Source: an uncultured Planctomycetales bacterium
GTDB taxonomy: Bacteria > Omnitrophota > Gorgyraeia > Gygaellales > Profunditerraquicolaceae
Direction: 5' to 3'
Assembly: GCA_964456925.1 (NCBI GenBank)
Contig: CAYWCX010000001.1
Span: forward strand, 10,800-74,799
DNA length: 64,000 nucleotides
The first letter of the stretch is position 1. Every line of letters begins with the position of its first letter. Below are positions 2,114 through 39,668 of this stretch, in pieces. The notes under the pieces were generated by a model. The model worked only from the letters and a program-made list of their open reading frames with translations, was not told the origin of the DNA and ran no database searches. A program made the translations under genes and the position numbers.

Positions 2114-2845
2114 TTATTTTTTTAACTTCGCTGTCAGGATAAGTCCGGTAACGGCAACGATAAAACCCGCGATGCTTAAAATATGAAAGATGGTCAAGCC
2201 AAAAATAAGCGGGAGGTTATCGGCCCTAAAAGATTCTATCAGAAATCTTTTGGCGCAATAAAAGAGAAGGTAGAAGAAAAAAATCTGGCCGTCGCGGTGC
2301 GGCCGTTCGCGCAGTAATCTTAAAACAATAAAAATAAGGAACAACAGCAACGAAGAATAAAGCTGGGTAGGAATAAGGGTGGCGTCGTGCGCCGGAAAAT
2401 AAATCCCGAACCGCGAAACCTTACCGAAACAGCAGCCGTTTAAGAAACAACCGAGTCTGCCGATTGCCTGCGCAAGGGCAAGATACGGAGCAATAAGGTC
2501 TGCTACCTTGCCGAGGGGGAGTCTTTTCTTTTTTAAATATAGCAAGCCGCTGGCTATCCCCAGGATTAAGCCTCCGAACCAGGAGAGCCCTCCCTGCTGC
2601 AGCATGATAATCTCAAGAGGGTTCTTGAGATAATAAAAGAGGTTATAACCGACGTAGAACAGGCGCGCGCCGATAATGCCCGCGATAAATACCAGAAAAC
2701 AAAGGTTGAAAATAACTTCAGGCCGGACGTTAATCCTGGGGGCCTGGCGGCTGGCTAAAAAAGACCCCAGCATAAAAGCGATTGCCAGCATCAGCCCGTA
2801 GGAATAAATATGGAAGATTCCTATTTTACAGATTACGGGATACAT
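2114..2845 (-). CDS. lgt: prolipoprotein diacylglyceryl transferase
   Basis: Polytopic membrane protein of 243 aa with an Lgt-like N-terminus (MYPVICKIGIFHIYSYGLMLAIAFMLG). Sits in the conserved ileS-lspA-lgt-rluD neighbourhood. Confidence 0.8.
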   Translation of the reverse strand: MYPVICKIGIFHIYSYGLMLAIAFMLGSFLASRQAPRINVRPEVIFNLCFLVFIAGIIGARLFYVGYNLFYYLKNPLEIIMLQQGGLSWFGGLILGIASGLLYLKKKRLPLGKVADLIAPYLALAQAIGRLGCFLNGCCFGKVSRFGIYFPAHDATLIPTQLYSSLLLFLIFIVLRLLRERPHRDGQIFFFYLLFYCAKRFLIESFRADNLPLIFGLTIFHILSIAGFIVAVTGLILTAKLKK

Positions 2846-8178: not shown

Positions 8179-8868
8179 CTAAAACCCTCCGAATATTGCC
8201 CTGCCTAAACGGATGATGTCCGCGCCTTCTTCGATTGCTACCTCAAAATCATCGGTCATCCCCATCGAAAGCAGGGTTAAGCGGTTATTAACGGAAGGAT
8301 TAATTTTCTCCTTCAGTTCTCTTAACATCCTGAAATATGGCCGGGGTTGCTCGGCATATTCTCCAACAGGCGCAATAGTCATTAAACCTTTTATATTTAT
8401 ATTTTTTAGTTTGACAGCCTCCTCAACCATTGCCGCCAGCTCTTCCGGATTCAAGCCGGATTTGGTGGGTTCGGGGGAAGTCTTGACCTCAATCAAAATA
8501 TCCTGAACCTTATTTACCCTGGCAGCCTGTTTGTCAATTTCCGCGGCGAGGCGGATGCTGTCCACGGAATGAACCAAATCAAAAATCCTTACCGCCTCTT
8601 TTACTTTATTAGTCTGAAGATGGCCGACCATATGCCAGCGGATTCGCATATCGCCTGGCGCTAATCGCTTATCGTTATACTTTATAAGCGCTTCCTGCAC
8701 CCTGTTTTCGCCGATATCCGTTATGCCGGCCTGAATTGCTTCGTACACCTCCTGCGCTGTCCTGCCTTTACTTACTGCCACCATGGTAATTGTTGCGGGG
8801 TCGCGCTTTATCCTGGCACAGGCTGCGGTAATACGGCCTTTCAAAGAAGATAAATTATCCCTAATCAT
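8179..8868 (-). CDS. yggS: YggS/YlmE-family PLP-binding protein (PLP homeostasis)
   Basis: VAVSKGRTAQEV (PLP lysine) and HMVGHLQTNKVK motifs. The ylmE position downstream of the fts genes matches Firmicutes. Confidence 0.9.
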   Translation of the reverse strand: MIRDNLSSLKGRITAACARIKRDPATITMVAVSKGRTAQEVYEAIQAGITDIGENRVQEALIKYNDKRLAPGDMRIRWHMVGHLQTNKVKEAVRIFDLVHSVDSIRLAAEIDKQAARVNKVQDILIEVKTSPEPTKSGLNPEELAAMVEEAVKLKNINIKGLMTIAPVGEYAEQPRPYFRMLRELKEKINPSVNNRLTLLSMGMTDDFEVAIEEGADIIRLGRAIFGGF

Positions 8869-8884
8869 GGCTATAAACTAATAT

Positions 8885-8912
8885 ATTATACCTAATAAAA
8901 CGCAACGGTCAA
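8885..8912 (-). promoter_or_regulatory. sigma-70-like promoter for yggS-proC: TTGACC, 16-nt spacer, TATAAT
   Basis: Minus-strand reading is TTGACCgttgcgttttattaggTATAAT. The -10 lies about 17 nt upstream of the yggS ATG at 8868. Confidence 0.55.
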
Positions 8913-8926
8913 TACAATACCAATAC

Positions 8927-9225
8927 GGAGACGTTTTCCTCCCCAAAGCGGACAGTGTCTTGAGATAATCAGCGAAGGAAAGCTTTAGTTAAATTTTACG
9001 GTTTTTGCTGGAGCGCACATTAAGATTTTTATGGCAGGAGTGCACAAGGGATTACGAGCCGCTGGAATACGCTTGCCTTACGATAGCCTACTGATGGAAG
9101 CGGCGAGTAAACCGTAGTGCACGGCGTAAAAATCCAGTGCGCGAAGCAAAACCGCAAAATTTAGCTGGAATCTCTATTCGTTCATTATTTGAGACACTGT
9201 CCCGATTGACGAGGAAAACGTCTCT
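8927..9225. repeat. Palindromic repeat element copy C1: ~180-bp rod-forming core at 8988-9168, nested inside extra outer inverted repeats of about 48 bp (8927-8975 and 9181-9225)
   Basis: The core shares 85-90% identity with C2 (34530-34701) over GCTGGAGCGCACATTAGGATTTTTACGG...AAGGGATTACG...GTAAACCGTAGCGCACGGCGTAAAAATCCAGTGC. The 5' and 3' halves are reverse complements. Outer repeat: GGAGACGTTTTCCTC...GGACAGTGTCT on the left versus AGACACTGTCC...GAGGAAAACGTCTC on the right. Confidence 0.85.
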
Positions 9226-9232
9226 ATAAGTA

Positions 9233-10489
9233 CTAGAAGTATTCCTGGTATACTTCCCTGACTTTATGGAATGCCTTAACCAGGACATTACGGGGAGGCT
9301 GGGGAGCGTATAAGGTGTGCGCCTGTTCGCGGTGCAGGGACTGGCATATCAAGCCAAGACTGGTCAGGTAAGTGAGATAGCGCTGACCGGAAAGGGAATC
9401 GTAACGGTTGGCGAGACCGGCAATCTCGGGATTAAGGAGACGGCCGAGTTTTATCGAAATACCCAGATTGCTCTCCAGGGATTCCAGGAACCCCTCCAGC
9501 ATCACCGTCCTGCCGACGCAGATAAAATTGGCAACCCTCTGGGTAGGCACCATCTTATCCATTTTTTCCTTGATGGTCTGGCAGATACGTTTTGCTTCGC
9601 GGGTAGTAAGCTCTACTACCGCTTTTTCCTTGATCGGCTTGTAAATGTCGCGTTTCTTAACCAGGATTTCCTTATCCTCGGTTAACCGGTTATGCTCGCC
9701 CACAAAACCGTGCTGGCGTTTAATCTCCTCTGCCAGTTCAAACGGTATTTTGAGCTCGTCCGACAATCTCGCGGTTATGTCATCCCCGCCGATGGTAAGG
9801 ATTTCTACGTCGCAGAACCGGCCGTTTCGGAAAACGAGCATTTCGGTAATATCGCTGCCGATGTCACAGACTATCTCGACCTCTTCGGGGGGGGCGCTGC
9901 CGAATACCGCCGCGCTGGTAGCCAGGCCCGAGAAGAAAAAATCCCTGATTTCGTAACCGGCTTGATTGACGGCACGGGCAAAACTTTGTATACCCGCCAG
10001 TTTCGCAAAGATAAGGTAAAGGTCAACCTCGAGGCGGTGGCTGTAGAGCCCCGCCGGATTTATAATGTTGGTTTTGGAATCAATGGCGTAGCTGTAAGGA
10101 ACGCAATGGATAATCTCTTCTTCAAGGCTCGAACCGAGAATGCGCGCCTGTTCGTTAACCTTATAGATATCAGAGGGGGTGATGACCTTATTGCCGCGTT
10201 CGGCAAGCGGAATTATGGCGCGGCTGTGCCGGCTGGAAATATCCTGACCCGAGATGTTGACCGAAAGGTATTTTATATTTATGCCGCAGGCGGCTTTGAG
10301 GCTGGTCAGGACATTGCCGATAGCCCCTACCAGCTCAATCAGGTCAACCACCGTGCCCTTTTTAACCCCCCGGGACTCCGCGCTCTCCAGGAATATATCG
10401 CTTATGCGCCCCTTTTTAATCCGGGCAACCGCGGCGGCAATCTTGCTGGAGCCGATGTCCAGCGCACAGAGGTAATTACTGTTTAGCAT
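9233..10489 (-). CDS. ftsA: cell division protein FtsA
   Basis: LDIGSSKI actin-fold N-terminus and a C-terminal amphipathic helix (LVKAFHKVREVYQEYF). Follows ftsQ in the division cluster. Confidence 0.9.
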   Translation of the reverse strand: MLNSNYLCALDIGSSKIAAAVARIKKGRISDIFLESAESRGVKKGTVVDLIELVGAIGNVLTSLKAACGINIKYLSVNISGQDISSRHSRAIIPLAERGNKVITPSDIYKVNEQARILGSSLEEEIIHCVPYSYAIDSKTNIINPAGLYSHRLEVDLYLIFAKLAGIQSFARAVNQAGYEIRDFFFSGLATSAAVFGSAPPEEVEIVCDIGSDITEMLVFRNGRFCDVEILTIGGDDITARLSDELKIPFELAEEIKRQHGFVGEHNRLTEDKEILVKKRDIYKPIKEKAVVELTTREAKRICQTIKEKMDKMVPTQRVANFICVGRTVMLEGFLESLESNLGISIKLGRLLNPEIAGLANRYDSLSGQRYLTYLTSLGLICQSLHREQAHTLYAPQPPRNVLVKAFHKVREVYQEYF

Positions 10490-11222
10490 CTTCCTTGAAT
10501 TTTATTACGGGGTCCTTAAACCTTAAGTCAAAGTATTTAATCCTGCTCAGTTCGTTCCTGGTCTGCCGCATAAGATTCTCTAAAAGCTCAACCCGCTCCC
10601 TGATATTATCCTGGCCGATCCTTACCTCCAGGCCGTTATCGGTAACAAAAAAGGCATTAACGGGGTTGGCGACATTGACGACCTTAATATTAAGGTAAGG
10701 GGCGAGCGGCCTTTTCTTAACCTCCCTGACGATGCTGACCGCCAGGCCGAGTTCCTGCACGTTGTATTTTTTACCTATCTTGGGGCCGAAGATTTTAGTC
10801 TCCAGGCCCAGGATAACCGGCAGGGCATTTTCTTGAGGCTCCCCCTCGGCATCCAGAAGCACCAATTCTTCATCCACGCAGAAATAACGGTATAGCTTGA
10901 CGTACGCCTGGGGGGTGCGTTTGACAAAATCCACCAATAAACGGTTGGGCAGAATCCTGATGAGTCTTACCTTCTTATAGGCGGGGTGGAATTGCCAGAT
11001 GCGCCCGGATTCTTTTTTCAAATCAATATTAAAGATGCCCTGCCCCTTGAAATAGGAAAAGTTCTCCTTCTCCCCGCCGCCCCTTACCGCTATCTCTTTA
11101 ATCTTAAAATAATCCAGGTTCTTTAAACCCCGAAACAACGCGGCTACCGTCAGGTAAATTACAACCAGAAACACTAACGCCAGGATTAATTTAAAGGGTA
11201 TTCTAAGCCGCGGTTTTTTCAT
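10476..11222 (-). CDS. ftsQ: cell division protein FtsQ/DivIB
   Basis: N-terminal TM segment plus POTRA-like domain, at the expected position between ddl and ftsA. Confidence 0.8.
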   Translation of the reverse strand: MKKPRLRIPFKLILALVFLVVIYLTVAALFRGLKNLDYFKIKEIAVRGGGEKENFSYFKGQGIFNIDLKKESGRIWQFHPAYKKVRLIRILPNRLLVDFVKRTPQAYVKLYRYFCVDEELVLLDAEGEPQENALPVILGLETKIFGPKIGKKYNVQELGLAVSIVREVKKRPLAPYLNIKVVNVANPVNAFFVTDNGLEVRIGQDNIRERVELLENLMRQTRNELSRIKYFDLRFKDPVIKFKEDAKQ

Positions 11223-12186
11223 ATGCCAATTCCAGTAGTTTAATGCAAAGTTCGCCGAACCCTATGCCGCTGTTGCGGGCTGCCTTGGGTAAAAGACTGG
11301 TGGCGGTAAAGCCCGGGATGGTATTAACCTCCAGAACAAAAGGTATATTATCATTATTCAGGATGATGTCAACCCGGCAACAGCCAAAGCAGCCCAGGAG
11401 CCGGTGTGCCGCCAGGCCTGCCTCTTGAATCTTGAGGCCGACCTGCGGTTCCAGTTCGGCAGGGACAACATACTCTGTGATGCCGGACTGGTACTTGGCA
11501 TCATAGTCAAAGAACCTGTGTTTGGGCACAATCTCGATTACCGGAAGAGCCCTGTCATCCAAAATGCCCACCGTCATCTCTCTGCCCGGAATATACTGTT
11601 CAACCAGCGTCCTCTCGTCAAATGTAAAGGCCTTTTCCAGTGCCTGGCCCAACTCCTCGATTTTATCGATAATGGATAGACCTATGCTGGAGCCGTTGGT
11701 TGCGGGTTTAACTACGAGGGGCGGGGAAAAACGCTGCCCTAAACTCCACCCGGCAAGATAAGAAGATTTTTCTACTACTTCATAAGGCGGCACTGCCAGA
11801 CCCTTCTCTTCGAAAATCCGGCGCGAGGCGATTTTATCCATCGCCAGCCTGCTGGCAAGGACGCCTGAGCCGCTATAGGGCAGCCGTAACCGCTCAAGGA
11901 TTTCCTGGATCTGGCCGTCTTCTCCGAAACGGCCGTGCAGCGCCAGAAACACGCAGTCTAAATGCTGGGATTTCAAAAGCGCGATGTTCTGCTCGACATT
12001 GTCGCTCTGGATATCTATGGCTGTGACATTAAGCCCTAAATCCTTAAGCGCCTCATAGACTGCCATCCCGGATTTCAGGGAAATCTCCCTCTCGGTAGAC
12101 GGCCCTCCCATCAATACGCCGACCCTGCCGAATTTCTTTTTGCTCGCCAGGGCGCGCTTGTGTCCTTTTGCCTTTAATTCTTCCAT
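11203..12186 (-). CDS. ddl: D-alanine--D-alanine ligase
   Basis: MGGPSTEREISLKSG N-terminal motif and an ATP-grasp fold. Confidence 0.9.
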   Translation of the reverse strand: MEELKAKGHKRALASKKKFGRVGVLMGGPSTEREISLKSGMAVYEALKDLGLNVTAIDIQSDNVEQNIALLKSQHLDCVFLALHGRFGEDGQIQEILERLRLPYSGSGVLASRLAMDKIASRRIFEEKGLAVPPYEVVEKSSYLAGWSLGQRFSPPLVVKPATNGSSIGLSIIDKIEELGQALEKAFTFDERTLVEQYIPGREMTVGILDDRALPVIEIVPKHRFFDYDAKYQSGITEYVVPAELEPQVGLKIQEAGLAAHRLLGCFGCCRVDIILNNDNIPFVLEVNTIPGFTATSLLPKAARNSGIGFGELCIKLLELAYEKTAA

Positions 12187-34277: not shown

Positions 34278-34302
34278 AGAACGCTTTAACGGGCCCTCAC
34301 TT

Positions 34303-34489
34303 GGTCTAATTTTAGGTTTTGCTTCCGGCACGGAAAATTTTTGCCGTCTGCTTCGGTTTACGGCTCGCTCCCGTAAAGACTATCGCCGACACGACATACT
34401 CCCGCTCGCCGTAATCCCTCGCAGACCCAAGCAAAAATAAGATGTCAAAAATTTTCTAATGTGCCTCCAGCAAAATCCTAAAATTTACC
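34303..34489 (-). repeat. Palindromic repeat element copy C3, in inverted orientation relative to C1 and C2
   Basis: Minus-strand reading is GGTAAATTTTAGGATTTTGCTGGAGGCACATTAGAAAATTTTTGAC...GAGGGATTACGGCGAG...CCGTAAACCGAAGCAGACGGCAAAAATTTTCCGTGCCGGAAGCAAAACCTAAAATTAGACC. It has the same architecture and conserved blocks as C1/C2, but its helices are rewritten in a compensatory way. Confidence 0.8.
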
Positions 34490-34529
34490 ACGCTAAGTTA
34501 CCCGTTAATCCTATAGCTGATTACGCTCT

Positions 34530-34701
34530 ATAATTTATGCGTTTCGCTGGAGCGCACATTAGGATTTTTACGGTAGGAGTGCGCAAGGGATTACGCCGAA
34601 CGAAAGGTGGCGAGCCCGCGTTAGCATACTGCCCGAAAGAGAGGCGTAAACCGTAGCGCACGGCGTAAAAATCCAGTGCACGGAAGCGAAAGCATAAATT
34701 A
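34530..34701 (+). repeat. Palindromic repeat element copy C2; its end lies about 4 nt from the tRNA-Pro 3' end
   Basis: ATAATTTATGCGTTTCGCTGGAGCGCACATTAGGATTTTTACGGTAGGAGTGCGCAAGGGATTACG...GTAAACCGTAGCGCACGGCGTAAAAATCCAGTGCACGGAAGCGAAAGCATAAATTAAAA. Its 5' and 3' halves are reverse complements. Confidence 0.85.
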
Positions 34702-34704
34702 AAA

Positions 34705-34782
34705 TGGTCGGGGCGGACAGACTTGAACTGTCGACCTCTTGGTCCCGAACCAAGCGCTCTAGCCAAACTGAGCCACGCCCCG
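34705..34782 (-). tRNA. tRNA-Pro (anticodon CGG)
   Basis: Minus-strand sequence CGGGGCGTGGCTCAGTTTGGCTAGAGCGCTTGGTTCGGGACCAAGAGGTCGACAGTTCAAGTCTGTCCGCCCCGACCA folds as a cloverleaf. Acceptor arms are CGGGGCG/CGCCCCG, the D arm is GCTC/GAGC, and the anticodon stem is CTTGG/CCAAG with loop TTCGGGA. The T arm is GACAG/CTGTC with TTCAAGT, and the CCA end is encoded. Confidence 0.92.
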
Positions 34783-39485: not shown

Positions 39486-39668
39486 AACAAAAAACCCGAA
39501 GAGACAATCTTCGGGTAAATAAACACTGCGCCTTTAATCTCCTCCCCTCTGGACTTTACCATCGGCTCTGGAATTTCGCCAGATCTACCCCTGCTGTTTT
39601 CAAGCAGCGGGGGCTCGCGGGCTTAACCGCCGGTCAGGAATTCCACCTTGCCCCGAAGATTAACGTAA
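39486..39668 (-). promoter_or_regulatory. FMN riboswitch (RFN element) with intrinsic-terminator expression platform, in the ribBA leader
   Basis: Minus-strand RNA AAUCUUCGGGGCAAGGUGGAAUUCCUGACCGGCGGUUAAGCCCGCGAGC...GGCGAAAUUCCAGAGCCGAUGGUAAAGUCCAGAGGGGAGGAGAUU matches the FMN aptamer consensus (UCUUCGGGGCAGGGUGAAAUUCCCGACCGGCGGUAGUAAAGC ... GCCGACAGUGAAAGUCUGGAUGGGAGAAGGAU). Downstream lies the hairpin CCCGAAGAUUGUCUCUUCGGG followed by UUUUUUG, about 16 nt before the ribBA start. Confidence 0.9.

Follow-up and report, generated by a model that had tools for sequence, protein, structure and literature searches.

Probable nesting of two intergenic repeat elements in a 299-bp palindrome between ftsA and yggS of an Omnitrophota genome

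The REP, BIME and REPIN repeats of proteobacteria are short, non-coding and intergenic; they lie near gene ends, alone, in inverted pairs or in small arrays, and a pair can form a hairpin. MITEs such as the Correia (CREE) elements of Neisseria and Nezha of cyanobacteria are small elements with terminal inverted repeats, which occur as dispersed copies and size variants and as insertions nested in other repeats. The ERIC (IRU) sequences of enterobacteria are imperfect intergenic palindromes of about 127 nt that are found in either orientation, are conserved across distant species and vary in length through insertion at one fixed internal site. REP- and ERIC-type elements have been reported to act as 3'-end barriers or insulators.

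The 64-kb stretch of DNA analysed here (the window) carries a 299-bp palindrome between ftsA and yggS. We consider it highly probable that this palindrome consists of two independent intergenic repeat elements, with a member of one family, K, nested inside a member of another, O. O resembles REP/REPIN or MITE elements and K resembles the ERIC type, and neither has all the features that define these classes. Neither family had a match in Rfam 15 or anything relevant in the literature searched, and O and K appear to be two previously undescribed intergenic repeat families of Omnitrophota.

Like REP-type repeats, O is short and non-coding, and its units occur singly, in inverted pairs or clustered, always in intergenic DNA close to the ends of genes. 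In about 14 of 22 copies the distance to a stop codon is 0-17 nt, some copies overlapping the stop itself (loci L009, L012 and L017), and paired arms can form hairpins. O differs from REP-type repeats in its phylum, in having no conserved GTAG, in the weak folding of its single arms (-1.5 to -8.1 kcal/mol, z = +0.9 to -3.6) and in its direct subterminal repeats, which are more like transposase-binding sites. With MITEs such as Correia elements and Nezha, O shares its small non-coding size (99 nt), terminal inverted repeats, many dispersed copies, size variants and insertions nested in other repeats. However, no consistent direct repeat that could be a target-site duplication was seen by eye in the sequences flanking 10 complete O copies, and no autonomous IS with O-type ends was found, the genes beside solo arms and pairs being housekeeping genes. 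K is likewise an imperfect intergenic palindrome in either orientation, conserved across distant species and with length variants at one fixed internal site, but its likeness to ERIC is one of organisation only: K is 170-190 nt long, belongs to another phylum, and has strongly conserved asymmetric internal loops and a clear strand polarity.

The features of the window are as follows.

8179-8868, minus strand: yggS, encoding a PLP-binding protein of the Ala_racemase_N fold and lying downstream of the composite
8885-8912, minus strand: yggS promoter-like site, TTGACC at 8912-8907, then 16 nt, then TATAAT to 8885
8927-8976: O-family arm 1, GGAGACGTTTTCC followed by TCCCC, AAAGCGGACAGTGTCT and the inner segment TGAGATAATCAGCGAA
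8977-9176, plus strand: K-family copy C1, 200 bp, with a profile match at 8993-9160 and the ends GGAAAGCTTTAGT and ATCTCTA placed by K homology
9177-9225: O-family arm 2, reading on the minus strand AGAGACGTTTTCC, TCGTC, AATCGGGACAGTGTCT and the inner segment CAAATAATGAACGAA
9233-10489, minus strand: ftsA, with its stop codon at 9233-9235, 7 nt from the O arm end at 9225
34297-34499, minus strand: K copy C3, without O arms
34515-34705, plus strand: K copy C2, without O arms, head-to-head with C3 and adjoining a tRNA at 34708-34782 on the minus strand

The original prediction placed C1 inside a second, outer inverted repeat, and complementary arms do flank the 200-bp core. Their limits needed a small revision: the left arm is 50 nt long and ends at 8976 rather than 8975, and the right arm is 49 nt long and starts at 9177 rather than 9181. 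The right arm lies 7 nt from the ftsA stop, and the yggS promoter-like site begins 14 nt from the arm end at 8927. A repeat search of the window returned the outer arms at 8928-8960/9192-9224 (33 nt, 85% complementary) and a second, inner inverted pair at 8965-9005/9148-9188 (41 nt, 71% complementary). The 11-mer GGACAGTGTCT, noticed earlier as a block common to both arms, occurs exactly twice in 64 kb, once in each outer arm and on opposite strands. C2 and C3 were correctly described as lacking outer repeats; neither is flanked by an inverted repeat or has an O-type motif in its vicinity. Only two ORFs, of 42 aa and 66 aa, overlap the 299-nt composite, which lies where ftsA and yggS close a ddl-ftsQ-ftsA cell-wall/division cluster.

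Sequence comparison indicates that the outer arms are the two halves of O, a short non-coding palindromic intergenic repeat that is dispersed in Omnitrophota genomes. The O terminus is AGAGACGTTTTCC, accompanied by one or more subterminal repeats CAA(T/A)(C/G)(G/C)GGA(A/C)AGTGTCT. JGI metagenomes were scanned with a pattern that tolerated the differences between the window and the related locus L008, yielding 20 further loci, so that the outer repeat is clearly not confined to this site; confinement to it would have pointed to a local artefact. At these loci similarity reaches past the bases specified in the pattern, and many have partner arms. They include nine complete palindromes of 81-194 bp without K (L011, L012, L013, L016, L017, L019 twice, L022 and L023) and 11 solo arms, some of them followed by one to three more direct copies of the subterminal repeat. 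One arm of the L019 copy at 1215-1295 is identical to window arm 1 over 33 nt from GAGAC, a stretch that takes in the otherwise variable loop segment, and window arm 2 matches the solo arm of L009 at 33 of 34 positions. The tetranucleotide signatures of L023, L017, L009 and L019 are close to that of the window (r = 0.93 for L009), and thus these loci probably belong to the same or a near genome. The best named protein hits of a 39%-GC contig bearing O place it, too, in Omnitrophota.

The neighbours of O are ordinary housekeeping genes, and the copies occupy short intergenic gaps. The occurrence of K-free copies at many such loci therefore identifies O as a second repeat family, independent of K. 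Its orientation relative to the upstream gene is unbiased (5 same, 6 opposite), and a scan of viral contigs gave no O match. Two other views of the arms were considered. Solo arms as ends of larger transposons were rejected because ordinary genes surround the short intergenic gaps, and each arm as a REP-like hairpin with conserved G-T wobbles was dropped because folding is weak and about equal on both strands.

The core, by the same kind of comparison, can be assigned to K, a repeat family separate from O. Both blastn and nhmmer confirmed three K copies in the window, namely C1 (around 8990-9160, plus strand), C2 and C3. A pattern built from motifs common to these copies was run on species-representative genomes and matched 15 loci in about 12 mostly Omnitrophota MAGs, one of which holds three copies; 11 loci are in eight MAGs named Candidatus Omnitrophota or Omnitrophica and 4 in three labelled uncultured Planctomycetales. 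In addition, scanning of viral contigs gave a single K match (L044, 463-556), on an 80.5-kb contig classed as viral in IMG/VR. Rfam 15 returned nothing over C1, C2 or C3, either at the gathering score across the whole window or at E <= 10 in both K regions.

An alignment of 22 K copies contains the near-invariant motifs GCACATTAG, CAAGGGATTACGGCGAG and GAGCCGTAAACCGNAGC, between which the helices change in a compensatory manner. Conserved internal loops and a conserved tandem G.A/A.G step (GGCGAGC/GCGAGCC) are further features of the family. In the 20-sequence subset used for structure statistics (A3), 94.6% of cells are paired and compensatory changes occur in 14 of 27 pairs; the covariation score is 0.336, whereas shuffles give 0.131, with none of 500 reaching the observed score, and controls with slid partners stay at 0.13 or below. 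An extra hairpin of 13-21 nt is present at one fixed internal site in 9 of the 20 aligned copies. The profile of 22 sequences gives E values of about 1e-20 to 1e-42 on one strand and none better than 0.05 on the other, and the consensus strand is the better-folding one in 19 of the 22 copies. The flanking genes run against this strand in 14 of 21 cases, not a decisive number. No gene family, such as a transposase, reverse transcriptase or nuclease, recurs beside K in at least three loci, and association with a tRNA is seen for C2 of the window and for no other copy. The covariation, the polarity and the lack of a recurrent gene neighbour together mark K as a structured, dispersed, non-coding element of its own. 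Its conservation exceeds what ordinary MITE decay would be expected to spare: between species with FtsA proteins of only about 60% identity, the loops, the covariation of the helices and the polarity are all maintained.

Several K copies show arrangements of their own. Head-to-head pairs occur twice, as C3/C2 in the window (15 nt apart) and at L009, where copies at 2274-2452 (minus) and 2532-2708 (plus) are separated by about 80 nt. At about 5740-5760 of L016, a 20-nt fragment of the K 5' end (GGTTTTTGCTGGAGC) abuts a full K copy, which suggests a truncated or interrupted earlier copy.

The ends of K in C1 were defined by homology: the minus-strand end TAGAGATTCCAGC is as in L009, and the plus-strand end GGAAAGCTTTAGT is as in the second K of L009 and in L043. 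With K removed, the joined arms form a 99-nt palindrome (-28.4 kcal/mol as DNA, z = -8.1) that is complementary up to the junction (…CAGCGAA|TTCGTTC…). Because the arms are complementary right to the junction, K sits at the dyad of an O element (GCGAA|TTCG). No direct repeat that could represent a target-site duplication is present at the K/O junction. Flanking inverted repeats are absent from 20 of the 22 K copies, and only C1 and L039 have complementary flanks. In L039, from another Omnitrophota MAG, K lies inside a 35-nt inverted repeat (537-571/778-812, 80% complementary) that is unrelated to O, and hence the placement of K inside palindromes is recurrent and not a property of O.

The relatives of this locus were found by FtsA protein search followed by contig look-up, and are L008 (79% identity), L005 (77%) and L007 (72%); an FtsA search of genome contigs gave no close relative. 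As the original prediction had advised, the orthologous spacers were compared, and they differ in content. L005 has an empty spacer of 51 bp between ftsA and yggS. L008 has 157 bp with an O element of ~97 bp, which starts with AGAGACAGTTTTC...AATCGGGAAAG, ends with GGAAAGCGCCTCTC and contains no K. The spacer of L007, 317 bp long, contains a K copy, and outer arms cannot be recognised in it. All four loci (window, L005, L007 and L008) keep the yggS promoter-like TTGACC/TATAAT, and its presence in the empty spacer of L005 indicates that the promoter predates the insertion. The O element of L008 is no nearer to that of the window than other family members are, and thus the orthology of these two copies is unproven. 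Moreover, L008 FtsA is nearest to that of the empty L005 (81.8% identity), which implies that L005 has lost O or that O came to this spacer on two occasions. K of L007 is 59% identical to C1, compared with 79% for K of L009 (88% in the apical domain); since C1 is closer to the L009 copy, the K copies of L007 and the window probably reached the ftsA-yggS spacer independently.

Taken together, with O and K each found without the other, K placed at the dyad and the orthologous spacer variable among relatives, the nesting of K in O would be explained if K had inserted, at this locus or a different one, into an O element that was already present. Insertion of the core into a pre-existing inverted repeat was one of three readings originally offered, and it fits best: the O family exists elsewhere without the core, a core-free O occupies the ftsA-yggS spacer of a relative, and K is nearly always found without O. 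Nested insertion of one small repeat in another is ordinary, and the outer repeat needs no special mechanism. As judged from the distribution of their copies, both O and K have probably been mobile; no transposase or autonomous partner element for either was found at the loci examined.

A composite element with terminal inverted repeats had also been suggested, and here the support is partial. The whole unit would itself be mobile, with the O arms as its terminal inverted repeats and K as cargo, and would have arrived at ftsA-yggS in one piece; we regard this as possible but doubtful. Its best evidence is L009, a locus downstream of a rodA/ftsW-family gene, where the same O-arm/K junction recurs. 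Homology between L009 and the window begins at the first base of the O arm, crosses the junction, where the two differ by an 8-nt indel, and continues to the end of K(a), with a mean column identity of about 81%. After the second K of L009, a stretch agrees at 20 of 27 positions with the inner portion of the opposite O arm in the window, a weak remnant matched by 21 of 1000 shuffles; the close tetranucleotide signature of L009 also counts in favour of this view. However, this second arm lacks its terminal part, K stands between arms at none of the other 19 O loci, O arms are present at none of the other 19 K copies, and L008 carries a K-free O in the very same spacer. The occurrence of O::K(a) at two loci means either that it was copied as a unit or that a K subfamily inserts repeatedly at the O dyad, and such repeated site-specific insertion could also give the common junction. 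With K entering O as the founding event, later copying may have involved the whole O::K composite, as the L009 alignment suggests.

A bolder extension would make K a phylum-wide, strand-specific element that homes to the tips of palindromes, with O::K still mobile and one enzyme perhaps moving both families. In that case K might be either an undescribed non-coding RNA or an element moving through a single-stranded intermediate, and its targets would be the O dyad (window and L009) and the unrelated inverted repeat of L039. We hold this to be rather improbable. The outer ends of O and K do have a motif in common, (T)AGAGA (O, AGAGACGTTTTCC; K, TAGAGAT...), which lies on the minus strand at 9170-9176 and 9219-9225 of the window and at 2219-2226, 2263-2269 and 2529-2536 of L009. 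It could be a common recognition or cleavage site, although the motif is very short.

The third reading, one super-hairpin of ~300 nt, is physically possible. Nucleotides 8927-9225 fold into one hairpin of -135.5 kcal/mol on the plus strand and -126.8 kcal/mol on the minus strand (z = -10.1 and -10.3, with none of 200 shuffles folding as well), but nothing marks this hairpin as a selected unit. That the 299 nt are one selected functional RNA, a K-type structure with a lengthened closing stem serving as terminator, insulator or stabiliser, is in our view unlikely. The great stability on both strands, the 85% complementarity of the arms and the position of the unit, from 7 nt past the ftsA stop to 14 nt before the yggS -35 element, speak for such an RNA. 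However, the family to which the arms belong also occurs in the absence of K, the K consensus strand of C1 is antisense to ftsA and yggS, and L005 has an empty 51-bp spacer with the same promoter. In addition, the hairpin is not followed by a U-tract: on the mRNA strand it runs into GUAUUGGUAUUG, and the search for an intrinsic terminator gave one weak 6-bp site only, at the level expected from shuffles.

A present-day role of the nested pair is conceivable. The mRNA of the dcw cluster (minus strand) would carry the composite as a hairpin of great stability, beginning 7 nt past the ftsA stop and lying upstream of an intact yggS promoter. Analogy with REP- and ERIC-type elements makes a role there as 3'-end barrier or insulator plausible; a tolerated selfish insertion is equally compatible with the data.

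Misassembly can create palindromes, but a local duplication or assembly artefact has a negligible chance of explaining the outer repeat, since the arms match a family in 20 other contigs and four independent assemblies, made from different samples, agree exactly (500 bp around the composite at 100% identity in three, and all 394 bp available in the fourth).

The value added by these results is descriptive, in that they define two intergenic repeat families in the poorly studied and mostly uncultured Omnitrophota, and the conservation of K across the phylum is the most interesting by-product. They also bear on annotation, as O- and K-type elements yield spurious ORF calls. At 2413-2640 of L007 (minus strand), the source annotation calls a 75-aa gene that has no Pfam hit and lies wholly inside the K copy, most likely a false call.

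Two further observations concern the surroundings of the composite. In the division cluster (8179-12186), yggS comes directly after ddl-ftsQ-ftsA, and ftsA lacks a following ftsZ, in the window and in L005, L007 and L008 alike, and the tubulin signature GGGTG[ST]G had no match in any frame of the 64-kb window. The window also contains an FMN riboswitch (Rfam RF00050, 111.5 bits) at 39533-39664 on the minus strand.
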